Made by a program: the position numbers and the translations under genes | Notes under the pieces: model-generated | Databases searched by the model: none | What the model saw: only the letters and a program-made list of their open reading frames with translations | What the model was told of the DNA's origin: nothing | Virus record (IMG/VR): IMGVR_UViG_3300022555_000023 | Span: 8,095 to 72,094 of that record | Reading direction: 5' to 3' (one strand) | DNA: 64,000 bases | From: a virus | Taxonomy: Duplodnaviria > Heunggongvirae > Uroviricota > Caudoviricetes | Shown: piece after piece, positions 1 to 13,718 of the stretch | Position numbering within the stretch: position 1 is the first letter of the stretch | Layout of the letters: each line of letters starts with the position of its first letter

Positions 1-1115
1 CCACCAAAGTCACGGGCGATCTTGGCGGGCATTTTGCCTGCGGGTGTGGGGCGATCAGCAGCCTGCCGCACACCAATGCGAGCACGGTTCGCGTCGGCGG
101 CTGCCTTATCGGCGGCCTGCACCCGCCGCGACATCGCCTCGTCGGTCGTGCTCAGTTGCGGTTTGGCAGCCGGTGGCGGAGCAACCGGGGCAGGCGGTGC
201 CACTGGTGCTGGGTTGGCAGCCTGCCACATGGCCTTGTGAGCGTCGTAAGCCTTCGCCGCCATGCGGTGGTGATTCTCGTTTTCCAGGGCCAGGGCGAAC
301 ATGGCCATCTTGTCGGGATCTTTGATCTTGCCGATGCGACGTTCCAGGGCGGCGTCGTCCATCGTCCTGAGACGCTTGTACTCATGGTCCATCGCCTTCT
401 CATAGGCACGCTCGCCCATGCGGTTGCGTAGATCGTCATGATCCGGCATTCGGTACTTGGCTCGTGGGGCGGCACCGCCGGATCCACCGCCGTTATCCGG
501 AGCCAACTTTGCTCCGCCCGCACCGCCCGACCACTGGTTACCGTGGAAAGGATGACCCGCAAGATCACCAAGCTCAAGGTCAAGGCCGCGGGAAAGCTTG
601 CCCGTGGACGACTTGTCGTCGTGATCAACGGCGGCGTCTTCGTGGGCACGGGCTAACGCACTGTAGGCCGCAGAAAGCTTCTCGTGCATGTCCTGGTGGT
701 TCGCGCCGTGCTCGGATGCCTCGCGACTATCGGCACGGTTATACTCCCTGCCGCGTAGCGGGCCGTCCGTGGGGCCGTCCTCGGCTGACTGACTGTATTT
801 GGCCGCCATCTTCTCAGCGTAGTCCTGGGCCGCACCGTGTGCGTTGGAGGCGGTGTCGTGATCGCTGCTGTTGCACTTCGGGCCGCACTTGCTGCTGGCC
901 TTCTGGGCATCATCTGAGGACGCCGTTACCTCGTCATCGTCATGGGTATCGACGCCCCGTTTGTCCGCTACACGCTTCAGGCGTTCGACGGTGTCGCGAG
1001 CCTTACCTACAGCGGCCCAGCGACCGTTCTCGTCGCGGGCCTGGTCGCCGCCCAGAGAAATAGCCTTGCCGCTAACCGGAAGGCTGAGAAACATATCGAC
1101 GATGAAGTTCTGCAT
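1..1115 (-). CDS. Partial CDS. The N-terminal 371 aa lie in the window and the C-terminus runs off the window start. One copy of the GNQY motif (LDLELGDLAGHPFHGNQW) sits near 533-586.
   Basis: Translating the minus strand by hand from ATG 1113-1115 gives MQNFIVDMFLSLPVSGK... with no stop down to position 1. It is missing from the ORF track because it has no in-window stop. Its N-terminus resembles the adjacent 1125..1646 protein (MQNYIVDLFLS). Confidence 0.7.
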   Translation of the reverse strand, partial: MQNFIVDMFLSLPVSGKAISLGGDQARDENGRWAAVGKARDTVERLKRVADKRGVDTHDDDEVTASSDDAQKASSKCGPKCNSSDHDTASNAHGAAQDYAEKMAAKYSQSAEDGPTDGPLRGREYNRADSREASEHGANHQDMHEKLSAAYSALARAHEDAAVDHDDKSSTGKLSRGLDLELGDLAGHPFHGNQWSGGAGGAKLAPDNGGGSGGAAPRAKYRMPDHDDLRNRMGERAYEKAMDHEYKRLRTMDDAALERRIGKIKDPDKMAMFALALENENHHRMAAKAYDAHKAMWQAANPAPVAPPAPVAPPPAAKPQLSTTDEAMSRRVQAADKAAADANRARIGVRQAADRPTPAGKMPAKIARDFG

Positions 1116-1124
1116 GATACCACC

Positions 1125-1646
1125 TTATTCGTAATATACGCCGCCCAGGTCTCCCCGCACCTTCTTCAGGCCGGCATCCAAGTTGGCTTGCTCCCGAGCA
1201 CTAACGCGTCGCGGCTTGGACTTGGCTTCAGGATGATCGGCCTCGATGGATTTGGCGGCAGCCTCGTTGGCTGCCTTGGCCTTCATCTGGGCACTGGCGG
1301 CTTCACCGTCACGAGTTACGTCGCGGTAGTCGACGTGATTGTAAGTATCCTCGTGCTCCAGCCACGCCTTCTTATGATATTTTGCTGCGGAACGGTAAGC
1401 CACAACGGCCTTGCCGAACTTGCCTTTGGCGAGATGACCCTTAGCCTCGTCTGCCTTGGCCTGGGCCATGTCCGCATGATTCTTGGCACCCATAGCACCG
1501 TTCAGTGCTCTGGTCTTAGCGTTGGCCTCGGACGACGCGGTCTCGGCTGATGCAGTATACTGATTGCCGTGAAACGCGTGACCCGCCACGTCGCCCAGAA
1601 CGAGCGACGGCTGGCTCAAGAATAGATCGACGATGTAATTCTGCAC
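1125..1646 (-). CDS. Hypothetical GNQY-motif protein of 173 aa (LVLGDVAGHAFHGNQY near the N-terminus). Rich in Ala and Lys.
   Basis: ORF on the coding strand of the operon. The motif is shared with four neighbouring genes. The N-terminus is paralogous to the 1..1115 ORF. Confidence 0.7.
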   Translation of the reverse strand: MQNYIVDLFLSQPSLVLGDVAGHAFHGNQYTASAETASSEANAKTRALNGAMGAKNHADMAQAKADEAKGHLAKGKFGKAVVAYRSAAKYHKKAWLEHEDTYNHVDYRDVTRDGEAASAQMKAKAANEAAAKSIEADHPEAKSKPRRVSAREQANLDAGLKKVRGDLGGVYYE

Positions 1647-1664
1647 GGCGGTCTCCTTTGATAT

Positions 1665-3203
1665 TTACTTCGCCAGAGCAGCCATACGCTCGGCCATCAC
1701 CACTGTCGCGGGACGTTCCAGAACCCATGCACCCTGGCTGAACACCAGAGGCAGGTTCTCGCCACGGCTCAGGGACACCAAACGTTCACCCGCGGCCTTG
1801 GCGAGGTCGTGTTTTCCCGCCCGCTTAAGGGCACCGACGAAGCGTTCCAGTTTGTCCTTGTTCTTGATCTTGTTGATGCGAGTGGCCAAGTCGCGGTCGT
1901 TCATGGTCAGAATTCGCATCTGCTCATGCTCTTCATTCGATGTGGCGGCCACCACCTTCTTCTCGGCCCGCCCGTAACTCTTGGTCTGACGGGCAGCCGG
2001 CTTGACGTCGCTGCGGAGAACGGGCTTGCCTTCACCTGGGGCACGCTCGACAATCCGCTTGGCCGCCGCACGGGCTCCCACCGCAGCACCAGCCTCGCCA
2101 CCGGCGTACTGGTTGCCGTGGAACGCGTGCCCGGCCTGTTCGAGAACGAGGTCGCCGTGGCTCAGGGAGGTGTCCTGACCACCGCCCTTCGCGTCCCACT
2201 TGTCGCAGTCGGCATCGTGCTTGGCCATCAGGGCGTTCATGGACGCACGGCTCGGGGCACCCTTCTTGCCGAAGGCCAGTTTCAGATCACCGCGACTCAG
2301 GGCTGCCGGTGCGGCTGCGGCTTCATCGTGGGACGCCTGGTTGATTTTCTTCCATCCCTTGTCGCGGCTGGCCCGCAGGGAATAGATATCCTCTAGCGGG
2401 ATGGCCCGCACGGGAATCTTCTTCTCGATGCCGCCCTGCTCCGCTGCCTTGGGCTTGCTGTTGCCGCCTTGCAGGAGATTCTTCTTGAGTTCCTTCACCT
2501 CTTCCGCCGGCAGGACGCGGCCCGTGGCATTGTCACGCCACTGCTCGTGCTCGCGTCGCACGTTGCCCTTGGCGTCGGTGTGCGGACGAAGCTGGAGGTA
2601 TTCACGTCCGGTATCGACGTGCTTGATGATCTGGGGGTTGTCGGCATCGTGCTGGCCGGCACCTTCGGGATGGGCCTTCGAGACCCACATGGGCTGCTTC
2701 TCGAAGTCCTGATCGAGACCCTCACGGCCCTGCTGGGCCTGCACGTTCTTCTCGTAATTGAACCCGACGTGGAAACGACCGACCGCTTCGCGGGTGACGC
2801 CCTGCGGGTACAGCTCCTCGGTCTTCTTGCCCTTGTTCGGATGCTCGCCGCCGTCCGCTGCGATGCCACGGTGCTTCTTGACCAGTTCACCGTTGGCTGC
2901 GGAGAAGACCTTACGGTGGGCGACGCTGATGATGTTGTTGCCCTTCTTGAGGTCGTTGTTCAGGAACTCGCGGGTCTTCGCACCGTGGATGCTGCCCGGC
3001 CCGTACTGGTTCCCGTGGAACTCGTGTCCCGTCACATCGCCCAATCGAAGAACTTCAAACTCGCCGCAGCCAAGGGACAGAAGGAGAACATCCGTCGTCG
3101 GCTTGCTGCTCGTGCCCAGCTTGATTTCCTTCGTACCGAAAAGCTGGTTACTCAGGCTCATGGCCCAGTCACCCACCGGACGGTTATCGAACATCCTCGT
3201 CAT
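1665..3203 (-). CDS. Hypothetical GNQY-motif protein of about 513 aa with two copies: LRLGDVTGHEFHGNQY near the N-terminus and LVLEQAGHAFHGNQY near residue 350.
   Basis: The ORF track gives 1665..3293, but an ATG at 3201-3203 has an AAAGGAGAA ribosome-binding site (MTRMFDNRPV...) and is the likely start. The reading frame is long and open. Confidence 0.7.
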   Translation of the reverse strand: MTRMFDNRPVGDWAMSLSNQLFGTKEIKLGTSSKPTTDVLLLSLGCGEFEVLRLGDVTGHEFHGNQYGPGSIHGAKTREFLNNDLKKGNNIISVAHRKVFSAANGELVKKHRGIAADGGEHPNKGKKTEELYPQGVTREAVGRFHVGFNYEKNVQAQQGREGLDQDFEKQPMWVSKAHPEGAGQHDADNPQIIKHVDTGREYLQLRPHTDAKGNVRREHEQWRDNATGRVLPAEEVKELKKNLLQGGNSKPKAAEQGGIEKKIPVRAIPLEDIYSLRASRDKGWKKINQASHDEAAAAPAALSRGDLKLAFGKKGAPSRASMNALMAKHDADCDKWDAKGGGQDTSLSHGDLVLEQAGHAFHGNQYAGGEAGAAVGARAAAKRIVERAPGEGKPVLRSDVKPAARQTKSYGRAEKKVVAATSNEEHEQMRILTMNDRDLATRINKIKNKDKLERFVGALKRAGKHDLAKAAGERLVSLSRGENLPLVFSQGAWVLERPATVVMAERMAALAK

Positions 3204-3231
3204 GACGATTCTCCTTTGTAAGATCATTTGA

Positions 3232-4299
3232 TTAGACAATACCCTGCAGCACGGCTGCTGTGCGTCCAACCATAGACGCGATGGTGACTCCAATCGGGTT
3301 CAGTAGCTGGCCCGCGTTCTTGGTTCCGCCGTTGGGCAGGATGACCCAATACGGATCGGTGCCCGCTGCTGGTGCGGCTATGCCAAGAATCTTACAGAAG
3401 TTGTAGGGACCGATGAGACCCGTAAGACCCAGACCGTTCGGGATGCCGGCGGCGGTCGGTGCTGTGCCGGTAATCGCCCGGTAGCACATGTAGGTGCTGC
3501 CGTTTGTCGCAAGCATCCCAGGAACGTAGGACGTACCGCCCGCGTAGGCTCCGGGCGAACCGATACTGGTCGTGGCCGTGATGCTGGTCAACCACCGCAT
3601 CGTGGTGTTGGGGTTGCCCCAGTCCTTGATGTTGTAAGCCTCGCTGTACTGAGCCAGACTTCCGCCCGTCGTCAGCAAGGTTCCAGGCTGGCGAGCGTTA
3701 CCGGACACTCCGTAGCCGTCGCTGACACCCTGCGAAACGTTGGGTCCGAAAAGCTGGGAGGTCTGACCTGCGGCGATGTTCTGCACGTCAACCCGCACCT
3801 GATCGAGGACGTCCACCACCGTACCGTAGACCGCCCGCAGTCCGATGACCGCACCCGTGCCGCTGCTGGCCGCACCGGAGGAGTTGACAGCCGTGGTCGT
3901 GGCGAAGCCCGCCTTGTATCCCGTACCGGGAACCAAGGGCAAGACGGCGGTCACACCGCCCGTCGCGCTGATTCTGGCCACCACCACCTTGCCGCCCGAC
4001 GCCCCGGTCTGCACCAGGGTCAGGATGTCGCCGATGCGGTAGTTCTGCCCCGCACCGCCCGGCTGTGTGGCAGCCTTGGCCCAGGGTAGAAGGTCCGAGC
4101 CTGACGTCAGCACCGCCCGTCGAAACGGCTTCTTGTAGAAGGCGTCGATGGCCGCGTACTGCGTGGCCGAGATGTAGCCCGCTGTCGTGCCCGGCCCAGT
4201 GTACATGAGGCGGGCCATTCGCAGCAGGGCGAACTGGAAGTAGCGAATCTTCCGCCGCGGCGGCATTTCGCTGGACTGGTAGGTCTTCAATGTGGCCAT
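3232..4299 (-). CDS. Putative virion structural protein of 355 aa. Gly-, Thr-, Ala- and Ser-rich and fibre-like. No family assigned.
   Basis: Long ORF in the operon. Low-complexity G/T/S-rich composition is typical of fibre or capsid-associated proteins. The call rests on position and composition only. Confidence 0.5.
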   Translation of the reverse strand: MATLKTYQSSEMPPRRKIRYFQFALLRMARLMYTGPGTTAGYISATQYAAIDAFYKKPFRRAVLTSGSDLLPWAKAATQPGGAGQNYRIGDILTLVQTGASGGKVVVARISATGGVTAVLPLVPGTGYKAGFATTTAVNSSGAASSGTGAVIGLRAVYGTVVDVLDQVRVDVQNIAAGQTSQLFGPNVSQGVSDGYGVSGNARQPGTLLTTGGSLAQYSEAYNIKDWGNPNTTMRWLTSITATTSIGSPGAYAGGTSYVPGMLATNGSTYMCYRAITGTAPTAAGIPNGLGLTGLIGPYNFCKILGIAAPAAGTDPYWVILPNGGTKNAGQLLNPIGVTIASMVGRTAAVLQGIV

Positions 4300-4320
4300 T
4301 GTAATGGTGCTCCGTATGGT

Positions 4321-4824
4321 TTACTGAACTTCGGCGTCCGCCGTGCCGGTGACACGCGCTTGCAGGCCCGCTTCCCGCATGGCACGCACCACGCGTGCCC
4401 CGCAGTCGATGATCACGATCATAGCGTCCGTCTCAATGCGGGCCTGTGCGCCATTTCGCGAGACGGTTTGTTGAATTGCGTAGGTGTCCGTTGACCGGCG
4501 ACGCAGAGTGGCCAGGGTGCGTTCCAACGCGTGCAGCCTGTTCACAATGGTCGGATCCGGTTCGGGCACGCTGCCCACCACCGTGGGATCGCCGAAGCGG
4601 CGTCGCAGGAGGATGCCCTGCATTTCCCAGATGGCTCGGGCCAATTCCGCCGTGCGGCTTGCCAGGCCATCACCTGTGGCGATGTCCTCGATATCGGCGA
4701 GGAGGACGTCAAGGACAGCCTCGTCGGGATATGGCGTGCGGGGCGGCGGAGTGTATTGCGGCTGCTCGCGGATGATGCGACGGCGGCTGCTGGTGTTCGT
4801 TGTTGATTCGGCTACTTCTGGCAT
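4321..4824 (-). CDS. Hypothetical protein of 167 aa
   Basis: ORF in the operon. Its N-terminus contains SSRRRII, a weak resemblance to the RRRIQT tag. Confidence 0.5.
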   Translation of the reverse strand: MPEVAESTTNTSSRRRIIREQPQYTPPPRTPYPDEAVLDVLLADIEDIATGDGLASRTAELARAIWEMQGILLRRRFGDPTVVGSVPEPDPTIVNRLHALERTLATLRRRSTDTYAIQQTVSRNGAQARIETDAMIVIIDCGARVVRAMREAGLQARVTGTADAEVQ

Positions 4825-4863
4825 TTCGGAAATCTCCTAATTCGGCTTCGGATGATCGCGGGC

Positions 4864-5613
4864 TTATTTGCCCGCCTTGTGCTGCTCCCATGCAGCTTTG
4901 TTGACGTAGTACTGGCTGTGCTCATGCACGCTTGGCGACTGCCCCTTGGGCGTGACCAGCACCTGATTGTTTTGGGATCGCGTCGCGCTGCCACCGGCGG
5001 GATTGTGCTCGACGTAATCGCCTGCGGGAAGATGACCCGCGTAGGGCACACCGGCCTGATATCCGTGCGACGGGATTTTGCCGGCGGGAACGGTGACGGC
5101 TGACGCGAGCTTTGTTGCTTCGGCGTCGTGATTGGCCGCCTCTTCGAGATGACCCTTGACCTTGTTCTGATACTCCCGCTTGTTCTCCTGCCACTTTTCT
5201 AATGGCTCGTAACCTTCATCCTCGTACCGTGACGCGGGGTATGGAACCTTGGGGGCGGCTGGGAAATCGTCGAGGGCCTCGTTGATGACACTGGCCGCAC
5301 GCCGGTTCAAGTCGGCTGCGGTCTTATGGGCCTCGGGCGTGTTCTTATCGTAAGCATCGTTCGTGGCGTCGATGGCCTTATCGGAAGCCTTATCGGGATC
5401 GCCGCCGTCCGTGTACTGATTGCCGCGAAACTTGTGGCCGGCAACATCACCCAGAACCAGGTCACCGCCACGAAGGTTATCATGACTCAAGGTCATGTCG
5501 GAAGCGTGGCCCGGCTTGATTCCCAAAAAGGTGTCAATGGTCTTGTTCAGGCTCGACATGATGTTACCTATGATACGATATGACGCAGCAGCACTGCAAG
5601 GGCTTAACTGCAT
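4864..5613 (-). CDS. Hypothetical GNQY-motif protein of 249 aa (LVLGDVAGHKFRGNQY near residue 45)
   Basis: The ORF and motif are coded at 5413-5466. A sigma-70-like promoter and a ribosome-binding site lie upstream. Confidence 0.7.
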   Translation of the reverse strand: MQLSPCSAAASYRIIGNIMSSLNKTIDTFLGIKPGHASDMTLSHDNLRGGDLVLGDVAGHKFRGNQYTDGGDPDKASDKAIDATNDAYDKNTPEAHKTAADLNRRAASVINEALDDFPAAPKVPYPASRYEDEGYEPLEKWQENKREYQNKVKGHLEEAANHDAEATKLASAVTVPAGKIPSHGYQAGVPYAGHLPAGDYVEHNPAGGSATRSQNNQVLVTPKGQSPSVHEHSQYYVNKAAWEQHKAGK

Positions 5614-5649
5614 TGACTTCCATAATACACGGTTGGGGCAATCTTAGCG

Positions 5650-5695
5650 ATACCATTACTTTTCTCATTTTACAATGATCTAAGTATGATCAACC
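5650..5695 (-). promoter_or_regulatory. Candidate sigma-70-like promoter on the minus strand (TTGATC, about 15 nt, then TAAAAT) in the 76-bp gap upstream of 4864..5613
   Basis: This is an AT-rich island in otherwise GC-rich DNA. The hexamers were read by eye. The spacing is short. Confidence 0.25.
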
Positions 5696-8600
5696 CTTGG
5701 CATGCTGCTCAGCTTGGCGACGATAGAATCGTGCCCGACCGAAGTGATTACTCGCTCGGTTCGTGCTGCCGGCAGCTCGGTGCTTCACGGCAGAATCGGC
5801 AAACGCCTCAGATGCCCTGACTGCCAACGAGGCTTTCTCGCCCGGTGATGCCGTGGATGCTCGGTACGCCTTGCCCGCCTGCTGGGCCGTCTTCATGGCC
5901 GCGTCAGCACGCTCCTGCATGGCCGCGTAAGCTGGATGATCCTTGAGCTTGCCCTTGCGGTCTTCAAACTCGTGGTCGCTGGCCCCGTGCTCGTGCAGGT
6001 GCATGAAGGCCATCAGGGCTCGGGCCTGCTCGTCATGGTCTTCGGTTCCGGGCTGGTCTCCGACCGCCTCGGCCAGCTTGGCGGCCTTCATGTGCTTCAC
6101 CGCGGCATCGCCCAGGCGGTTGCCGATCCAGTGGTGCATGGAATCCTCGATGTCGGGCGTCAGGGCCTGCGGCGGTCCACCGTGGTGGTGGGCGTTCATG
6201 GCCTCGCCCGCAGCTATGCGGGCGGCGTAGTCGGCCTGCTCGTACTGGATAGCCTTCTTCGCGTCGGGCTCCTTGGGCTGGCCAGCACTGTACTGATTGC
6301 CGCGGAATTCATGCCCCGCAACGTCACCAAGCTCCAGCGGCACATCCAGACTCAACCGAGCGTCGCGGGGGCGGCGGGGAGGATGGGCTTCAGCCTGGGC
6401 CTTGGCCGCGTTATCTCGCAGGGCCTGCATCCTGCCGGCGGATGGCAGTCTGACCACGTGCTCGCCTGCTCCGCGTATGCGTCGCGATTCCTCCTCGTGT
6501 TCGCGAGCCGCAGAGATTGCTGCCTTCTGGGCGGCGTGGTGCATGCTGGCGAACTCCAGGCTGACGTCACTGCCGTCTTCTTCATGATGCTGGGCGGCGA
6601 GAACATGACCTTTAGCAGCCTTCTGGAACTGCTCGGCGGCCTTATCATGATCTGCCGCCGCACCGGAGGCAATGGCTTTCTTCGCCGTCACCAGGGCCAC
6701 GTTGTTATCGCTGGTCGACGCGATGCTCTTGGCTAGTGCGCCCTTCTGCACCGTACCGGCTAGGGGGAACAACTTATAGTTCCGGATGGCGGCGTTAGCC
6801 TTGGCAGATGATTCTGTTGCCGTGAACTGGTTGCCATGAAACGCGTGCCCTGCGACGTCACCAAGCTCGATAGGTAGATCATGACTCAGGCCCTTGATCT
6901 GGAAATCATTCTGACGGCCCTGCACGTTGGCATTGTGAGCATCCCCGTACTTGCGACCATGCTCGTCATCATCTTCCGGGTTCCAGCCGGCGGCAATGGC
7001 CTGCCTACGCATCTCATCTGCCTGGAGACTCATGCGTTTTCCCTGAGCCATCGAAGTATGACGTGTTGCCAGGTCTTCCAGCTTCTCAGGATCATTGGCA
7101 GCACTCTTCGCCACGGGCAAACCACGGTTCTCATACACGCCCCGCACGGTTCTGCCGACAGCCGCAGCCTCCCTCAGATGACCCGCAGCATCGAGATGAT
7201 GCTGTATGGCCTCGGGTGTATCCCCGGCAGCCAGAGCCCGTGATGCTGCTTGTCCAGCCTGCGTTGTATGGTACTTGTGCTCAACGTAGGCTGACATACT
7301 TACATCATTTGCCGCCGCGTGCGTATCATCATGAAGTTGCTGAGCTGCCGTGACTGCATTGCTTTGCGCTACCGCCGGCAATGCAGTCAAATCTGTCTGG
7401 GGACGGTCATGATACGGCTCGATCATATTCTTACCCACGCTTTGCTGCGGGTTTATGGGCAGTCCCGCATCGTGCGTGATCACAACAGCATTGCCGCGGT
7501 CTTCGACGACCCGGAAGTCACGAGCATCATCTCCGGGATCCTGCCACTCCGGTTTGATGGCTACCCGCTGGCCTGCCAGGTACTGGCCGTGCTGCTCGGC
7601 GGCTCCCTCCAGATACTTAGCCGTCTCAATATGCTCTCGTGCCGCCATTCTGTGCTGGCCGCGTTCAAGCTGGGTCAGCCTTGGTGCCTCAGAGGCATTC
7701 GCATGACCTTCGGCGGCGTCGCGACAACGTGATGCTGCGGCAGAATACAGGCCGTCCTTGACGAGACGCTTCGCATCATCTGAAGCGTCCACATGACGTT
7801 TGCCAGCCCGTGCGCCCTTCGTACTGTTGGTGGCGTCACTAGCCTTCTTCACAGCATCAACGGCTCCCTGGTGCGTGTACTGATTCCCGTGGAACTCGTG
7901 ACCTGCAACGTCACCAAGCTCAAGATCAATATTTAGGCCATGACCTAAATTTAGGTCATCGGCTAACGCGGTGTCAGTTTGGCTCATGGCCATATCCTCT
8001 GGTTTGGTACTTCCAGTCCAAGACTGGAGATGATGGTTCGCCAGTTCCTGTAGGGCCTCGCCGGCAGAGCGACAGGCGTCGGCGGCGTCTTCATGATATG
8101 AATCGTGACCATCGGAACTGTTCAGGTCAGCATCGTTGTGCAGGTCGGCTGTGTGATGATACTCGTTCGCAGCCCTCGCACAGGCTTTGAAAGCAGCGTC
8201 GTTCGACCGGCCCGAGGCTGACTCCTTCAGGGCGACCACGGCTGCCGTGTTGGCCGCACCGTGTGCGTCGCGTGCGGCTGCTCCGCGGCGACCGGGCGGT
8301 GAGCCAATGGCTTCCTTGCTGGCCTTGGCGGCGTAGTCTACGGCCTCCTGTGCGGTCGCGGCGAACCTCCCACGGGCGTCCCGTTCCTGGCCCTCGCCGT
8401 GGCTGGCCCGCAGATCTCCCCGCAGGGCGGTAGCTCCGTCGCCAACAGCGTCGTCCTTGGGCTGGCACGTCTGGCCGCAGGTCGGGCACTTACCATCCTG
8501 ACACGCACCCTTGCAGGCCGGGCAGGTGGCATCCTGGCTCAATGCGGCGTCCTTACCGCCACCGATGAGAACCGGGTGTCCGTTGATCGTGACCCAATGA

Positions 8601-9469
8601 GCATCGTCCGGAAGTTTGGATCCGGCGTTGTGCGTGCGGGCCTTCACGCGGTGCTGGGATGCTGCATCGGACAGGCCCGCCTTCTCGGCCTTGCGGGCTG
8701 CGTCATTCCGGTCTAGATAAGCGTTCCTGTGCGCCCGCCGCAGGTTGACCAGATTGCCGTGGGACGGATCCGCACGGTGGGCGTCCTCGGCGGATTTGAC
8801 CTGGGACGCACGACGGTCGGCCCGTGCAGATGCCGTGGCGTGCTTCTTCAGGTTGCCAGCCTTTTCCTTTTCGGCCTTCTTGGCAGCTTCGGCCTTCGCC
8901 TTATCATCTGCAACCTTTTTATCGGCGGCGGCCTTCTCCCTGGCCAGTCGTTGGCTGCGGGCCACGAAGCCCTCCTGTGGAGTCTGGGCGAGATTTCTGC
9001 GGCCCACGTTAAGAACGCGTCCAATAGCACGGTCGCCAAACACGTTCGTGTTCCAGGCCCCGCCCCGTCCGCGGTTGCGGCCCGCGTCGGTTCGGTCCTT
9101 GACGAACTTCTGCCAGTGCTTCTTGTCGGCTGCGGACATCATATCATGGGAGATCTCGTGATGCCCGCCGGGGTTGGCCTCCTGGTCATGCATCATATCG
9201 TATGCATGGTCGGCAGACTTGGCCGGGCCGTACAGGTTACCTTCTGATATTCCGGGCTGCTCGATGTAGTCGCTGTGGAAGTCGCTGCCCATCTCCGACC
9301 GCATGCGGTCGGCTTTATCTTCATCGGGATAAGGTGCGACGGCGCAGTACCATTTGCCCTTCTCGGGTTCAAAGACCACGCAGTCCCGCTGCACGGACAG
9401 AATCAGGGCGGGCATCTCAACGGGGATATCTAGGGCTGACATGATACATCCTTGGTTAGCGGCGGGCAT
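5690..9469 (-). CDS. Giant hypothetical protein of 1259 aa with three copies of the GNQY motif (coded near 7876-7930, 6822-6878 and 6291-6338). Rich in Ala, Lys, Glu, Asp and His, with coiled-coil-like stretches and a Cys cluster CPACKGACQDGKCPTCGQTC.
   Basis: This is the longest ORF in the window. The repeats are spaced roughly 300 aa apart. The composition resembles internal virion proteins, ejection proteins or tape-measure-like proteins. The function is unknown. Confidence 0.75.
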   Translation of the reverse strand: MPAANQGCIMSALDIPVEMPALILSVQRDCVVFEPEKGKWYCAVAPYPDEDKADRMRSEMGSDFHSDYIEQPGISEGNLYGPAKSADHAYDMMHDQEANPGGHHEISHDMMSAADKKHWQKFVKDRTDAGRNRGRGGAWNTNVFGDRAIGRVLNVGRRNLAQTPQEGFVARSQRLAREKAAADKKVADDKAKAEAAKKAEKEKAGNLKKHATASARADRRASQVKSAEDAHRADPSHGNLVNLRRAHRNAYLDRNDAARKAEKAGLSDAASQHRVKARTHNAGSKLPDDAHWVTINGHPVLIGGGKDAALSQDATCPACKGACQDGKCPTCGQTCQPKDDAVGDGATALRGDLRASHGEGQERDARGRFAATAQEAVDYAAKASKEAIGSPPGRRGAAARDAHGAANTAAVVALKESASGRSNDAAFKACARAANEYHHTADLHNDADLNSSDGHDSYHEDAADACRSAGEALQELANHHLQSWTGSTKPEDMAMSQTDTALADDLNLGHGLNIDLELGDVAGHEFHGNQYTHQGAVDAVKKASDATNSTKGARAGKRHVDASDDAKRLVKDGLYSAAASRCRDAAEGHANASEAPRLTQLERGQHRMAAREHIETAKYLEGAAEQHGQYLAGQRVAIKPEWQDPGDDARDFRVVEDRGNAVVITHDAGLPINPQQSVGKNMIEPYHDRPQTDLTALPAVAQSNAVTAAQQLHDDTHAAANDVSMSAYVEHKYHTTQAGQAASRALAAGDTPEAIQHHLDAAGHLREAAAVGRTVRGVYENRGLPVAKSAANDPEKLEDLATRHTSMAQGKRMSLQADEMRRQAIAAGWNPEDDDEHGRKYGDAHNANVQGRQNDFQIKGLSHDLPIELGDVAGHAFHGNQFTATESSAKANAAIRNYKLFPLAGTVQKGALAKSIASTSDNNVALVTAKKAIASGAAADHDKAAEQFQKAAKGHVLAAQHHEEDGSDVSLEFASMHHAAQKAAISAAREHEEESRRIRGAGEHVVRLPSAGRMQALRDNAAKAQAEAHPPRRPRDARLSLDVPLELGDVAGHEFRGNQYSAGQPKEPDAKKAIQYEQADYAARIAAGEAMNAHHHGGPPQALTPDIEDSMHHWIGNRLGDAAVKHMKAAKLAEAVGDQPGTEDHDEQARALMAFMHLHEHGASDHEFEDRKGKLKDHPAYAAMQERADAAMKTAQQAGKAYRASTASPGEKASLAVRASEAFADSAVKHRAAGSTNRASNHFGRARFYRRQAEQHAKG

Positions 9470-9735
9470 GCTTCATGCGGTTCATGGCATGCCAAACATC
9501 GCAGGCATAATGATGCTGCGATGAAATTTGTGGCTTCAGTGATGAACTTCTCACGACGAGACGCTTCGTCCTTCTCATAGCGGCGGAACTTCTCATACAG
9601 GTTCTCAGCCAGGCGGCGAGCAAACTCGTCGTGATTACGCATCGCATCTCGGGCCTCCGTATCACATAGCATAACGGATGAAGGCCGTTCAGGCGACGTT
9701 ATGGCTTGGGGCACGGCCCGCCCGCGGGGCAGCAC
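9430..9735 (-). CDS. Hypothetical protein of 101 aa. Overlaps the start of the giant gene, which probably begins at a downstream Met.
   Basis: ORF only. Confidence 0.3.
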   Translation of the reverse strand: MLPRGRAVPQAITSPERPSSVMLCDTEARDAMRNHDEFARRLAENLYEKFRRYEKDEASRREKFITEATNFIAASLCLRCLACHEPHEACPPLTKDVSCQP

Positions 9736-10139
9736 GCTTTCTCTAGCGGCACCTTGATGGCGTAAGTGCAGACCGACTGATCGAACTTGCCCAACTGCTT
9801 AGCCTTATCATTGGAGTAGCTGGCTTCACATGTTCCCGGATACTCGCCGTTGGGCACGCAGGCACATAGCTCGTGTTTGACCACGCAGCCGCAGGGACTG
9901 ACGCTCTTGATCATGTGCAACGTCTTGGGCTGCTCGGGATTGGGCTTGCCGTCTTTGAACGCCGGCGGCTTGGTCATGTAGTCGTAGACCGTGGCTTTGC
10001 ACGGCCCATTCTTATGCGGGCACTCGGCAGGCACGGGAGCCGAGATGATGACCAGGCCGGGGTGCGTGACGTCGGGACATTCAATCTCGAAGTCGGCCCC
10101 AATGAAAGATGCTGCCAGTAGTAACGCTGCGGTTAACAT
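9699..10139 (-). CDS. Secreted cysteine-rich protein of 146 aa. N-terminal signal peptide and 14 Cys.
   Basis: MLTAALLLAASFIGA is followed by many CxxC, CC and CGC pairs. No family is recognisable. Confidence 0.55.
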   Translation of the reverse strand: MLTAALLLAASFIGADFEIECPDVTHPGLVIISAPVPAECPHKNGPCKATVYDYMTKPPAFKDGKPNPEQPKTLHMIKSVSPCGCVVKHELCACVPNGEYPGTCEASYSNDKAKQLGKFDQSVCTYAIKVPLEKACCPAGGPCPKP

Positions 10140-10161
10140 GATCTGTCTCCTAGAGGTTAGT

Positions 10162-10329
10162 TACTCAGACCAATCTGAGATTTGAGCGTAACGCTTTGCG
10201 ATATCCAGTTCGATCTGGAGCCGCTTGTTTTGTGCCCCGCTGCTGCACGCCTCGCCGCACCAATGATTCGCGGCGGCCAGCAAGATGATATTCAGGCAGA
10301 CAGAAATAATTAGGGCTGTGAGTAATACG
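10162..10329 (-). CDS. Small membrane protein of 55 aa (one N-terminal transmembrane segment)
   Basis: Translated by hand as MIAVLLTALIISVCLNIILLAAANHW... A GGAGGA ribosome-binding site precedes it. It is below the 60-aa cutoff of the ORF track. Confidence 0.3.
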
Positions 10330-10333
10330 GCGA

Positions 10334-10579
10334 TCATATTTCCTCCGTGTTGGTTCGACAGGTCGCTTCCTCCATACGAATGATCATGTCGTAGATACGA
10401 CGTGTTGACTCGTTGCAGGTTGCATCTGGCCCGGCCCGGCTGCCTACTTCATCGGTCTGCAACCACGATTCGTCTACGGCGGAGACCTTCGTATCGACGT
10501 GCGTGCGAGTGTTGGTCTCACGTATCCGCCCCAGGGTATTTTCCATGCGAAGCAAACGCTGCTTCAGGCTGTGTATCAT
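10334..10579 (-). CDS. Hypothetical protein of 81 aa
   Basis: ORF whose stop abuts the ribosome-binding site of the next gene. Confidence 0.3.
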   Translation of the reverse strand: MIHSLKQRLLRMENTLGRIRETNTRTHVDTKVSAVDESWLQTDEVGSRAGPDATCNESTRRIYDMIIRMEEATCRTNTEEI

Positions 10580-10785
10580 ATTGAGCCCCCTGGAAATGCA
10601 GCCCGCCCAGTCATTGGGCTTAAACGTTGCTCGCCTCGGGTGCTTCTAGATTTAAATGTGGGGCGGGGGCCTGAATCTGTTGCCGGGTCGGAAAAGCGAG
10701 TGGCGGCTGTGTTTGGCGCGTCCGACCCGATTTTCAAAGCTGTAGTCCCCGTGACCCCCCGTCCATGAGAAGCATCACGTCTCCT

Positions 10786-10860
10786 GTCTACATAGATACT
10801 GTCTACATAGATACTGTCTACATAGATACTGTCTACATAGATACTGTCTACATCCGCCCC
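10786..10860. repeat. Tandem direct repeat of a 15-bp unit, CTGTCTACATAGATA, with four full copies and one partial copy
   Basis: Seen directly in the sequence as ctgtctacatagata repeated four times then ctgtctacatcc. It lies inside a 1.3-kb low-coding, lower-GC region between two minus-strand gene blocks. Confidence 0.9.
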
Positions 10861-11124
10861 CATGACTTCCGTTTGCTTCGGTATGATATCCTTATCATAT
10901 TGTTGTTGAATCAACGTGTGACGCGACGCACAACCACGCAACATGTCTATACAGATCTTGTTACGTCGCTGTGCGTTCATTACGCTACTCCTGTACACCG
11001 TCTTCGATCACGCGACGCAACCGTGATCTCCTGCGATCACTGGATGTCTTGCGTTGCACACGTCCATTAGATTACAGTTACTGTTCGCGTGTGTATGATC
11101 TTCATTCATCGTTCGTTTCATGAA

Positions 11125-11146
11125 GACGCGTCCTGTCACGCGTCTC
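11125..11146. promoter_or_regulatory. Perfect 8-bp inverted repeat, AGACGCGT then cctgtc then ACGCGTCT, in the same non-coding region
   Basis: Seen directly in the sequence. It could be an operator or a hairpin. Confidence 0.3.
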
Positions 11147-11474
11147 ACGCTCGTCCTTGGGTTTAAATCTTCCCTTAGAGTTGCCCAGCCATCTGTATGA
11201 CGTACACATCGTGCAACGCACGCTGCGTCTACGCTTACCGTTGGTCTTACGTCGTGTGCCCATGTGCGTGTGTGATCTCGTGGCTAACAGATGATCTTGG
11301 GTTGTTGGTCAGGCAGCGGGTCTCCAGTCGTTACCCTATTGGGCACACGTGGGTCCTGGATAGGCGGGCCAACAGGAAACGTCCCTAGCCCAGGCTGCAC
11401 TGTAGGCCCGCATGCACACGACCGCACCCACGGGGCGTTGGCCCTTCCACACTTCGGGCACGTCCATCCTTCGT

Positions 11475-11702
11475 TCATGGCTTGGCTACCTCATGTGCCG
11501 TAATAGTGATACTGCCGCCCGCGTCAACGACCGGCTTATCGTTGGCGACCAATTGGCGTAACAGGCCGATGGCACTTAGGCCGTGAAATTGGGCCTCTGT
11601 GTAACTGGCCTGTGTGATGATCATGTTGTCCTTGTCCTTGGCGACAACGTTGTAGGTCATGGTCATGATTTCGGCTCCTGTGATGTTGAAAAGTAAATAC
11701 AA
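11475..11702 (-). CDS. Hypothetical protein of 75 aa
   Basis: ORF at the distal end of the long minus-strand operon. Confidence 0.4.
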   Translation of the reverse strand: MYLLFNITGAEIMTMTYNVVAKDKDNMIITQASYTEAQFHGLSAIGLLRQLVANDKPVVDAGGSITITAHEVAKP

Positions 11703-12475: not shown

Positions 12476-13177
12476 TTACGCCAGCCTGTACTTCGTGAAC
12501 GTCCAGAAGGTCTCGAACAATGGGCAGTAGCGGCAGAACCTGTGAAACTCCGCCGTAGCCTCGTCCTGGAGAAGCCTGATGATTCTGGTTTCAGACTTCG
12601 ACTTGTGCTCGCCGGTTTGTGATATGACCCACTTGCCGCGGAAGGCCCGCGCTAGATTGAGCCTGTAATCCTCGGATGCATGAGTCGGCTCGACAGTCAT
12701 ATCATCAAAAACAACGTCGTACTTGTCGGCGTTCTCGTACAAGTATCGGAACGCGTCACCTACGTTCACGTGCAGCTTGTGGGCCTCGCCGTTAAGGCTT
12801 ATGGGAAAGTGCCGCCGGCAAACGTCGAGAACCTCGCTATCAATCTCACAGCATGTGACTCGTGCCACGTTGGGCAGGTCGCATAGCTCGGCTGCCAGGC
12901 TGCCGTCGCCTCCGCCCATGATCAAGACCCGCATGTGATCCATGTCGGGCAGCAGGTCGAGCATAGCCCGATCATACTCAGTATCACTGTTGGCCGACAT
13001 AACATCGTCGCCCACGATGAGGGTCTTGCCATGAGCCTCATGATCCATGACCCTAATGATCTGAAAAGGCGACTTGCGCTCTTCGAGAATTCCAGAGAAC
13101 TTGTACCTGACCGGCCCGACGCGGTCTTCACTGTAGATAGTCAGGGATAATCCGTCATCGTCCCACTGTGAGTTCAT
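12476..13177 (-). CDS. speE: Spermidine synthase-like polyamine aminopropyltransferase (PABS fold) of 233 aa
   Basis: Matches the PABS family: VLIMGGGDGSLAAEL against VLIIGGGDGGVLREV, KSPFQIIRVMD/HEAHGKTLIVGD against SPFQ..GKVLVLDG, and YDVVFDDMT against FDVIIVDS. Confidence 0.75.
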   Translation of the reverse strand: MNSQWDDDGLSLTIYSEDRVGPVRYKFSGILEERKSPFQIIRVMDHEAHGKTLIVGDDVMSANSDTEYDRAMLDLLPDMDHMRVLIMGGGDGSLAAELCDLPNVARVTCCEIDSEVLDVCRRHFPISLNGEAHKLHVNVGDAFRYLYENADKYDVVFDDMTVEPTHASEDYRLNLARAFRGKWVISQTGEHKSKSETRIIRLLQDEATAEFHRFCRYCPLFETFWTFTKYRLA

Positions 13178-13718
13178 TTGTCTTTCCTGTCAGGTCATCG
13201 TGAGGTGCATCCCGATACAGGAAGTTAACTTTCCTGAACTTGGGCTTGAATCGTTCGTCGATCATCTTCAGGACGACCGACTGGTCATACGGCTTGCACG
13301 AGAAGATATCGAAGTACATGCTGCCGATGCGGTTGTCGCCGTGCATGGAGATGTTACTGGTTGTGATAAGCTGTAACGCACTCCAGCCACCATCGGAATC
13401 CGTGCCGAAGTTATACAGGAACGGCTCGCCCACGGCGGTCATCTTGATGGCCGCGACCAGATCCTTGATGAACTTCTTGATCTGCTTGCCGTCGTCGATG
13501 TTCTTGTTGCAGCCGGAGCAGTCCACCATCATGTGAAAGCCCCAATGCTCCTTGCCGTCTTCGCCCGTGAACAGATCATTTCGGGGATCGCGTTTGAGGT
13601 CGACTACGGGCGACTCGGGAATCGCGGCGGCATCTACGGGAGCGTCGCCCTGGGCCAGTTTGAGGTCGGCCTCGCGACCAGGCCGCAGGGACAGGAAAGA
13701 ATTCAGTTCGTGGTTCAT
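13155..13718 (-). CDS. speD: S-adenosylmethionine decarboxylase proenzyme (pyruvoyl-dependent, SpeH/SpeD-like) of 187 aa
   Basis: HMMVDCSGCN (GxHxxxDxxGC) and LITTSNISMHGDN against the ESHISIHTWPE self-cleavage site region. It is adjacent to the aminopropyltransferase. Confidence 0.7.
   Translation of the reverse strand: MNHELNSFLSLRPGREADLKLAQGDAPVDAAAIPESPVVDLKRDPRNDLFTGEDGKEHWGFHMMVDCSGCNKNIDDGKQIKKFIKDLVAAIKMTAVGEPFLYNFGTDSDGGWSALQLITTSNISMHGDNRIGSMYFDIFSCKPYDQSVVLKMIDERFKPKFRKVNFLYRDAPHDDLTGKTNELTVGR

Follow-up and report, generated by a model that had tools for sequence, protein, structure and literature searches.

A repeated peptide motif in a cluster of adjacent phage genes

The window, by which we mean the whole 64,000-nucleotide stretch analysed here (positions 8,095 to 72,094 of IMG/VR record IMGVR_UViG_3300022555_000023, a virus of the Caudoviricetes), carries at its left end a cluster of genes whose proteins share a short peptide motif with the core G-D-x-x-G-H-x-F-(H/R)-G-N-Q. 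The first-pass annotation had counted eight copies of this motif in five adjacent genes, and in a six-frame translation the pattern GH.F[HR]GNQ was matched exactly eight times. Every match lay on the minus strand of 1-9469, and the remaining 54 kb of the window had none. The chance expectation for the eight observed matches, calculated from the residue composition of the five proteins, was 3e-6, and 2000 residue shuffles of the same proteins gave none. The open reading frames (ORFs) and other features of the cluster were the following:

5690-9469, minus strand: giant motif protein, ORF of 1259 aa with three copies; helical His/Ala/charged-rich modules, no known domain
9413-9442, minus strand: giant N-terminus MSALDIPVEM, resembling the extended motif in its upstream half only ([SL]LD[VI]P[LI]x)
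4864-5613, minus strand: 249-aa single-module protein, one copy
4321-4824, minus strand: 167-aa protein without the motif, inside the cluster
3232-4299, minus strand: 355-aa Gly/Thr/Ala-rich protein without the motif, inside the cluster
1665-3203, minus strand: 512-aa two-module protein, two copies
1125-1646, minus strand: 173-aa single-module protein, one copy
1-1115, minus strand: partial ORF, the first 371 aa of an 820-aa protein, with leader MQNFIVDMFLS

With a full copy defined as L/I-x-L-G-D-..-aromatic, the eight copies were located as follows:

7877-7924, minus strand: LELGDVAGHEFHGNQY, giant protein aa 516-531
6824-6871, minus strand: IELGDVAGHAFHGNQF, giant protein aa 867-882, with LSHDLP directly before
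6290-6337, minus strand: LELGDVAGHEFRGNQY, giant protein aa 1045-1060, with LSLDVP directly before
5413-5460, minus strand: LVLGDVAGHKFRGNQY, 249-aa protein aa 52-67
3003-3050, minus strand: LRLGDVTGHEFHGNQY, 512-aa protein aa 52-67
2106-2150, minus strand: LVLEQAGHAFHGNQY, slightly degenerate, 512-aa protein aa 352-366
1557-1604, minus strand: LVLGDVAGHAFHGNQY, 173-aa protein aa 15-30
531-578, minus strand: LELGDLAGHPFHGNQW, 820-aa protein aa 180-195

The copy at 2106-2150 reads LVLEQAGH, having lost the GD and being one residue shorter, and its orthologue in the related contig L001 is the intact LVLGDVAGHEFHGNQY. The 14 residues initially described as the motif are present, but the conserved unit in this phage is longer and reads [SL]-L-D-[VI]-P-[LI]-x-L-G-D-x-x-G-H-x-F-[HR]-G-N-Q-[WYF]; leader-plus-motif sequences are exemplified by MTNPFSTDALVPNWTKASEILKGDVPGHPFHGNQYTGG and, from this phage, by MIIDVPIILGDTAGHEFRGNQYTG. 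It had also been stated that four of the five proteins carry a copy 15-50 residues from the N-terminus. This holds, in part loosely, for the 173-, 249- and 512-aa proteins, whose copies start at residues 15, 52 and 52, but not of the other two, since the first intact copy stands at residue 180 of the partial ORF (which does carry its leader) and at residue 516 of the giant protein. In matching public contigs the giant gene is called as 1250 aa, with its start MSALDIPVEM at 9442, and this N-terminus is without the GD..GH.F.GNQ core.

Conservation of the peptide and exchange of modules

Nucleotide identity among the window copies was 73%, third-codon identity at identical residues was 46%, and the exact words common to the copies were 5-17 nt long. 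The third-codon positions are thus scrambled, which means that selection acts on the peptide and not on the DNA. A 17-mer, gcaacgtcaccaagctc, thought at first to be conserved in three copies, was exact in two only (6318 and 7905), and a 14-mer was common to three. Orthologues of the giant protein at 47-64% identity retain every core residue. Recent paralogous duplication was considered and rejected as a source of the copies, because the synonymous sites are scrambled and the motif is found in hundreds of unrelated phages.

Comparison of the related contigs L001 and L002 showed two insertions, of approximately 440 nt in the giant gene and approximately 700 nt in the orthologue of the 249-aa gene, with breakpoints at or within approximately 25 nt of motif copies. 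A 91-nt block of flank plus motif (94.5% identical) was found in the giant gene in one of these phages and in the neighbouring gene in the other. The breakpoints and the moved block indicate that modules are gained, lost and moved at the motif. We read this exchange as a consequence of the cassette structure and of selection for in-frame joints, with microhomology aiding, and not as the reason for which the motif is kept.

Distribution of the motif

A 45-column profile of the window copies was searched with HMMER against 1.84 billion cluster representatives and matched 907 protein clusters at E<=1e-3, of which 280 reached E<=1e-10 and 22 reached E<=1e-30. Word-indexed protein searches with motif profiles gave 1 and 2 matches, which made the exhaustive HMMER search necessary. 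Many of the matched proteins are 1000-3461 aa long and hold up to nine motif stretches each. The consensus of 547 copies was [VLI]-x-[K/L]-G-D-[V/L]-[P/A/E]-G-H-[P/E]-F-[H/R]-G-N-Q-[W/Y]-T-x-G-x-G-G, in which practically no variation is seen at G, D, G, H, F, G, N and Q and a Gly-rich stretch follows, and the median copy-to-copy spacing was 200 aa. Only one His is invariant; the second is replaced by Arg in 31% of the copies.

The profile building and database search that the first-pass annotation had proposed thus found 907 clusters, and the failure of that annotation to place the motif agrees with negative results for the motif in four collections (Pfam, PHROGs, NCBIfam and PDB). In the PDB the profile matched nothing but the string GDVNGHKF of GFP, which is coincidental, and searches with motif substrings found nothing relevant in the searchable full text of 8 million papers. 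The motif is a linear signal that is real, specific to phages and under strong selection, and it appears to be undescribed so far. It is of a kind already known, that of capsid-targeting or processing signals and polyvalent proteins, and not a categorically new system.

A back-translated DNA pattern matched at least 118 stretches in IMG/VR but only 12 stretches among 185,579 bacterial and archaeal species, each represented by one genome. No instance was found in 72,556 plasmids, although the same query recovers the copy of the phage Rb1 described below at E=2e-3. The motif is thus rare in bacterial genomes, and its absence from plasmids ties it to capsids and not to polyvalent proteins in general. 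Among 50,697 GenBank phages, short-motif tblastn found a recognisable copy only in Xanthomonas phage Rb1 (LDGDFSGHPFRGNQH). The Rb1 carrier is a 1222-aa "internal head protein" (L121; PQ569993.1 51801-55466; XPA09464.1) with one copy near aa 744, and its neighbours are DarA-N, a reprolysin-like metallopeptidase and a 2238-aa helicase-like protein, a neighbourhood resembling that of the Dar proteins of P1. By eye, the N-terminus of this carrier looks like one of the InPase type, and the phage could serve as an experimental model.

A distinct variant, (L)DGDFPGHPFRGNQ[YF], with an acidic DDEEW-type stretch before it, was seen among the bacterial-genome instances (L124-L135). Its hosts are three Betaproteobacteria (Ideonella, Propionivibrio and Hydrogenophaga), it is a close match to the Rb1 copy, and the bacterial instances that bear it are probably prophages.

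The motif delimits probable cargo modules, and its carrier genes lie beside head genes

The 27 largest multi-copy proteins contained ADP-ribosyltransferases (ARTs, including ART-PolyVal), MuF, InPase, 2'-5' RNA ligase (2H) and Tpt1/KptA domains, and also NUDIX, GNAT, pentapeptide-repeat, topoisomerase IB and portal domains. This is the domain set of the polyvalent proteins, which have 2-15 diverse domains per polypeptide (Iyer, Burroughs, Anand, de Souza, Aravind 2017, J Bacteriol 199:e00245-17, PMC5512222), so these carriers are phage polyvalent effector proteins. In five proteins, all 14 of the 14 Pfam matches listed (best-stretch coordinates) lay between copies, and the motif interrupted no domain. 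The bracketing could be tight, with a PARP domain at 411-534 between copies at 409 and 543 and an ART domain at 2351-2507 between copies at 2308 and 2533. As the domains fall between the copies, the motif is a module delimiter with about one copy per domain. It also has a polarity: 190 copies were within 45 residues of the ORF start, compared with 13 within 45 residues of the ORF end, and the motif belongs to the front of the following module.

Single-module proteins have conserved leaders that run from Met1 into the core, for example MTNPFSTDALVPNW..ASEILKGD.PGH.FHGNQY, MSGFTT.ELLYPLTKGD..GH.FHGNQ and MDWRSITTILKGDVPGH, and a leader is common to paralogues within one phage. Adjacent motif genes form runs of up to six or seven in other contigs, with 5-6 in L014, L038 and L045. 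Some leader types also stand before internal copies, which fits fusion and fission of cassettes made of leader, core and domain.

When the first copy lay more than 150 residues into the protein, the preceding part was a portal, a head-maturation protease, MuF or another cargo module. Two clear fusions of an anchor, the motif and a cargo are protease-motif-topoisomerase IB-like (L117) and XkdF-type protease-motif-ParB-like nuclease (L008). The motif-free neighbours of carrier genes were large terminases, portals, MuF and maturation proteases (S78_2, Mu gpI-like, DUF2213).

A further natural protease-motif fusion is in L004. Besides the fusions, the topoisomerase-like domain also occurs stand-alone with leader plus motif, the loci noted for these arrangements being L117:4199-5842 (minus), L008:6599-8212 (plus) and L003:2409-3473 (plus). 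A packaged topoisomerase IB would be an unusual phage cargo.

The 173-aa protein matched exactly in ENA contig k141_83342 (ena:ERZ27245846) of 192,532 bp, a stretch of which (L122) is 100% identical to window 1-11,676 except for two units of a 15-nt tandem repeat. Past the left edge of the window come the end of the 820-aa ORF, with the second copy of that protein, then ORFs of 160, 328 and 166 aa, and then, about 5 kb beyond the edge, an intein-interrupted large terminase of 921 aa (L122:15015-17780), whose extein matches PDB 4zni at E=2e-5 (ATPase, aa 543-677). The terminase is followed by a 75-aa ORF and a 1676-aa protein that begins with MIIDVPIILGDTAGHEFRGNQY (MIIDVPIILGD) and has one further copy, and these by an ORF of 85 aa and a Mu-like portal. 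Beyond a block of small genes on the reverse strand lies a protein of 3461 aa, which has eight copies and both InPase and PI3/4-kinase-like domains. The whole phage has at least 19 motif copies in 7 proteins, which surround the terminase and the portal, and the cluster sits immediately upstream of the terminase and portal of this 192.5-kb uncultured phage.

The gene order, with the cluster running into a terminase, a Mu-like portal and two more giant motif proteins, argues for the initial idea of internal-virion or ejected proteins, and so do the carriers elsewhere that are fused to or adjoin portal, MuF or maturation protease. The window proteins are very probably head-internal or ejected cargo. 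The suggestion that they are tape-measure-like is not supported, as nothing points to tail genes. Among GenBank phages there was no DNA or protein match to the region, the giant protein or the portal, and only three relatives of the giant protein were found among 5.8 billion clustered sequences.

Proteins of the cluster and predicted structure

The window proteins had no relevant match in Pfam (E<=1), PHROGs or NCBIfam, and no recognisable domain was found in the five motif proteins, MuF, portal and metallopeptidase (MPTase) domains being absent by Pfam and PHROGs. For the 355-aa protein there was no family, no PDB relative and no relative in IMG/VR, and an AlphaFold2 (AF2) model made without an alignment had a mean predicted local distance difference test score (pLDDT) of 32. 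A PDB sequence search with the 167-aa protein gave no match. The modules of the cluster are novel, helical, His/Ala/charged-rich cargo matching nothing known, and the five genes look like one polyvalent protein broken into pieces.

The 173-aa protein was modelled with AF2 using 46 motif segments as alignment rows, and the mean pLDDT was 80.6. The model has a leader helix at aa 2-10 (QNYIVDLFL), the motif in an exposed coil at aa 11-33 (pLDDT 63-67) and a helical bundle at aa 34-171 (pLDDT 85-92). Foldseek gave only generic MIT/TPR-like helical matches to it, with E>0.07. The predicted coil placement suggests that the motif behaves as an exposed linear peptide and not as part of a fold. The earlier proposal that it is the repeat unit of a new fold is not supported, given this coil and the segments between copies, which are unrelated domains.

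Some further features of the giant protein were noted. A Cys-rich string, CPACKGACQDGKCPTCGQTC, lies at window 8465-8596 (minus) and is a possible zinc ribbon, and just upstream of it in the protein stands WVTINGHPVLI, which the 1676-aa protein of this phage has in the form GRWVTMHGSPVFI. A co-occurring variant (P0002, L123; 1008 aa) lacks 242 aa near the N-terminus (window 8669-9394, minus). The junction is between ...ALILS and DAASQ..., each with "LS" before, and the loss is a module deletion at population level.

A second short element, [ED]..(H/D)(P/E/D)R..G(R)[FW], was seen as ARDENGRW, ERDARGRF and ARDDHGRW, at window 1017-1040 and 8363-8386 (minus) and in L122:13491-14477. It gave 9 loose matches against 0.65 expected from shuffles, resembles EHPRDxxGxF strings in a few other carriers and may be an alternative or degenerate linker signal. 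As an equivalent signal, [ED]..HPR..G.[FW] was set aside: it is enriched, yet too rare for judgement.

A candidate signal for head loading and processing

Among the functions offered in the first-pass annotation, prohead-protease recognition or capsid targeting would fit these results best, and we favour, with moderate confidence, the reading that the motif is a head-loading and processing signal comparable to the capsid-targeting sequence (CTS) of phage T4, with the maturation protease as its likeliest reader. The peptide would be the invariant core of a linear signal of 20-40 residues at the N-terminal edge of each cargo module. The unit would consist of a short leader or upstream module, the core h-x-(K/L)-G-D-x-x-G-H-x-F-(H/R)-G-N-Q-(W/Y), often a Gly-rich spacer, and one folded domain, and such units would be joined in series in polyproteins as long as 3461 aa or be divided among adjacent genes, as in the window. 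During procapsid assembly the head-assembly machinery would recognise the exposed signal, and the likeliest reader within it is an assemblin/HK97-type maturation protease, because this is among the few components common to all carriers. The procapsid would take up the modules, which would then be separated from one another, or from the portal, MuF or protease that anchors them, by a cut at the signal itself or at the Gly-rich stretch after it. The outcome would be free single-domain effectors that leave with the DNA. Packaging itself, the reader protein and the cleavage are what we infer here. Cleavage is proposed because cargo behind a portal or a self-destructing protease could not be delivered unless released, and the cut is placed at the motif because this is the only conserved element between anchor and cargo.

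The CTS of the T4 proteins IPI-III and Alt, reportedly the work of Mullaney and Black, is a precedent and has been reviewed (PMC9026906, cited in PMC9024508). The CTS is N-terminal, is removed by the prohead protease, is approximately 10 residues long and ends in L/I-x-E (the gp21 site), and is not known outside one lineage or at internal positions. Both systems have a short signal on several adjacent, otherwise unrelated, fast-evolving genes for packed and injected products, and here the N-terminal signal is found in the adjacent genes for the 173-, 249-, 512-, 820- and 1676-aa proteins and also in L014, L038 and L045. However, there is no sequence similarity between the two, and the present motif has more residues, hardly varies between very diverse phages and recurs within polyproteins.

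A T4-type L/I-x-E site was also tried at the motif and rejected, with Glu before LGD in about half of the window copies and in 18% overall. The leaders of this phage include MQN[YF]IVD[LM]FLS and MIID[VI]PI[IF]LGD, and Glu is not conserved before the core.

In P1, up to 30 N-terminal residues of DarB suffice to load the giant anti-restriction protein or a reporter into the capsid, and the authors found no consensus among the Dar N-termini (PMC9024508). The sole cultured carrier of our motif, the Rb1 "internal head protein", likewise lies in a Dar-like neighbourhood. In phiKZ-like phages and SPN3US, many head-internal proteins are cut by the prohead protease at S/A/G-x-E or A-x-E (PMC5694885, PMC10052503), so that, as here, a short motif is common to many head-internal proteins of a jumbo phage. 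The difference is that there is no conserved x-E in or beside our motif, Glu at position -9 being present in 18% of the 547 copies, and that the window copies show Glu consistently at no position.

The polyvalent proteins resemble the present carriers in that multi-copy carriers have hallmark domains, are encoded next to head genes and are presumed to enter the host together with the DNA. The 3461-aa InPase-bearing protein is an example in the window's own genome, and the window cluster is phage-encoded and adjoins the packaging genes (TerL and portal). They differ in that the five window proteins have no recognised domain and are split into separate genes, and in that the motif is found only in phages and is absent from plasmid polyvalent proteins. 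Zincin-like MPTase domains have been proposed for the processing of polyvalent proteins in PMC5512222 and follow-up papers, in which the strings "GNQ" and "linker" have 0 occurrences and the motif is not described.

Several points weigh against a processing signal of this kind. A near-invariant site of 13 residues is far more conserved than the L/I-x-E of T4 or the S/A/G-x-E of phiKZ and SPN3US, and the portal, terminase and protease families of the carriers are diverse, so that no single conserved reader is apparent. The 25 PHROG families most often seen in motif-bearing ORFs included neither major capsid nor scaffold proteins, so a T4-like site common to the core head proteins is not seen, and in the parts of this genome that were read neither a maturation protease nor a major capsid protein was identified. 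Some N-terminal copies begin at residue 4, and cutting upstream of the core would remove almost nothing there. The sole cultured-phage instance is the single copy in Rb1. Finally, a polyprotein loaded intact would need one signal only, and a strict copy per module is unexplained without cleavage or multivalent binding.

Other readings of the motif

Because the site is unlike prohead-protease sites and persists across diverse head-gene families, readings based on docking, self-cleavage or a function after injection stay alive. Encapsulin cargo-loading peptides are short, conserved, usually C-terminal, single-copy and uncut, and they dock unrelated cargo in a shell of HK97 fold. In a comparable manner, our motif might only bind a fixed site in the procapsid (capsid interior, scaffold or portal) and never be cut, with many copies giving multivalent anchoring. 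We regard this as unlikely. In its favour are the exposed coil of the AF2 model, near-leaderless N-terminal copies (MIIDVPIILGD) that look like a tag and not like a site for propeptide removal, a copy kept in every module, restriction to phages with absence from plasmids, and the N-terminal tags of P1 DarB and the T4 CTS as precedents. But cargo behind a portal or maturation protease would stay tethered and could not be injected without cleavage, and a nearly invariant motif is hard to match with the highly divergent capsid, scaffold and portal sequences of the carriers. Both systems have a short conserved peptide on otherwise unrelated cargo, but by eye the G-S-L-type encapsulin consensus is unlike G-D-x-x-G-H-x-F-x-G-N-Q.

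Somewhat less likely still, in our estimate, is a self-sufficient cargo tag independent of lineage, which would either cut itself by means of Asn, His and Asp or be read by one deeply conserved pocket of the head machinery.

Its first form, a linker whose invariant Asp, His and Asn cut the backbone without a protease (for example by Asn cyclisation at G-N|Q), so that polyproteins fall apart in the capsid or after injection, we consider improbable when taken by itself. Autocatalytic Asn cleavages are known inside virus capsids (nodavirus and picornavirus maturation), and the N|PTH site of FlhB/YscU cleaves likewise. Nine near-invariant positions across differing portal, terminase and protease families would be easier to explain by intrinsic chemistry than by a common partner, D, H, N and Q are invariant, and the motif stands between every pair of modules and between anchors and cargo. 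The argument comes from the residue pattern alone, however; known sites of Asn cyclisation need a folded context, in contrast to the coil predicted here, 31% of the copies have Arg in place of the His that stands two residues ahead of the Asn, and the copies at the extreme N-terminus are left unexplained.

There is a rather smaller chance that the motif has no role in head assembly and is read after injection, by a host protease, chaperone or localisation factor that releases or activates the effectors. A host factor conserved across many bacteria would explain the invariance, and separation of domains after delivery was proposed in the polyvalent-protein paper (PMC5512222). Plasmid polyvalent proteins, however, have the same need and lack the motif, and neither the link with procapsid anchors and head genes nor the N-terminal position in single-domain proteins is explained. 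Slightly less credible again is a structural role, in which the motif would bind a metal or ligand as a small element or would cap each module at its N-terminus for folding or stability. His, Asp, Asn, Gln and an aromatic residue are typical ligand contacts and the window proteins are His-rich, but the domains behind the motif have no structural relationship to one another (ART, GNAT, 2H, Topo IB, helical bundles), which makes a common cap unlikely, the AF2 model shows no packing of the motif against the domain, and there is no analogue in PDB or Pfam. The metal or ligand site suggested at first is weakly supported at best, with one invariant His and the second so often Arg.

Least credible is the proposal that the copies are kept as homology patches driving recombination: the breaks at the motif and the moved block of L001/L002, together with exact words of 17-25 nt between some L001 copies, bear out that modules are exchanged there, but DNA recombination as the primary cause of conservation is largely refuted by the synonymous-site pattern and sits badly with conservation at the peptide level across hundreds of unrelated phages.

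Potential uses of the motif

Proteins that are carried in the capsid and injected are first-strike weapons against host defences and are hard to recognise from sequence. The motif could serve as a search handle to pull injected effectors from metagenomes, including new domains such as the helical His-rich modules of the window. The head-loading and processing reading would also give a testable answer to a question open since polyvalent proteins were defined, namely how such giant proteins are loaded and separated. Moreover, the motif is a candidate portable tag for placing foreign proteins in capsids, as with the T4 CTS and P1 DarB, and possibly across many lineages. If the self-sufficient tag were real, approximately 20-35 residues would be enough to bring any protein into the capsids of widely differing phages and to set it free in the host. 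The motif would then be a biochemical mechanism not seen before and also a marker by which injected phage effectors could be recognised universally; self-cleavage, if true, would be a new kind of protein chemistry.

The phage around the cluster

The genes of the window are nearly all on the minus strand, small and closely packed. Pfam matches in the window included a gp32-like single-strand DNA-binding protein, RecA/UvsX, an SbcCD-like pair (gp46/47-like), a 5'-3' exonuclease, a Dam methylase, an S-adenosylmethionine (AdoMet) decarboxylase and a spermidine synthase. The AdoMet decarboxylase (13155-13718) lies beside the spermidine synthase (12476-13177), both on the minus strand, and the pair is kept in the related contig L001; from this pair the phage may make polyamines for DNA condensation.

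The intein of the large terminase is at approximately aa 49-477 and has a LAGLIDADG-type homing endonuclease. The 166-aa protein just upstream of the terminase (L122:14496-14996) starts with MNRRSFLQRASAFFAAVVAG, which resembles a twin-arginine export signal and is odd for a head and packaging region.

A perfect 15-nt tandem repeat, CTGTCTACATAGATA, is present in 4.7 copies at window 10784-10853, in a stretch of lower G+C content (GC) with short doubtful ORFs. L122 has two repeat units fewer and is otherwise 100% identical, which indicates a copy-number polymorphism within the phage population. The GC of window 1-10000, which holds the motif cluster, was 0.60-0.63, compared with mostly 0.53-0.59 elsewhere, and the gp32-like end (62-64 kb) was also at 0.63.

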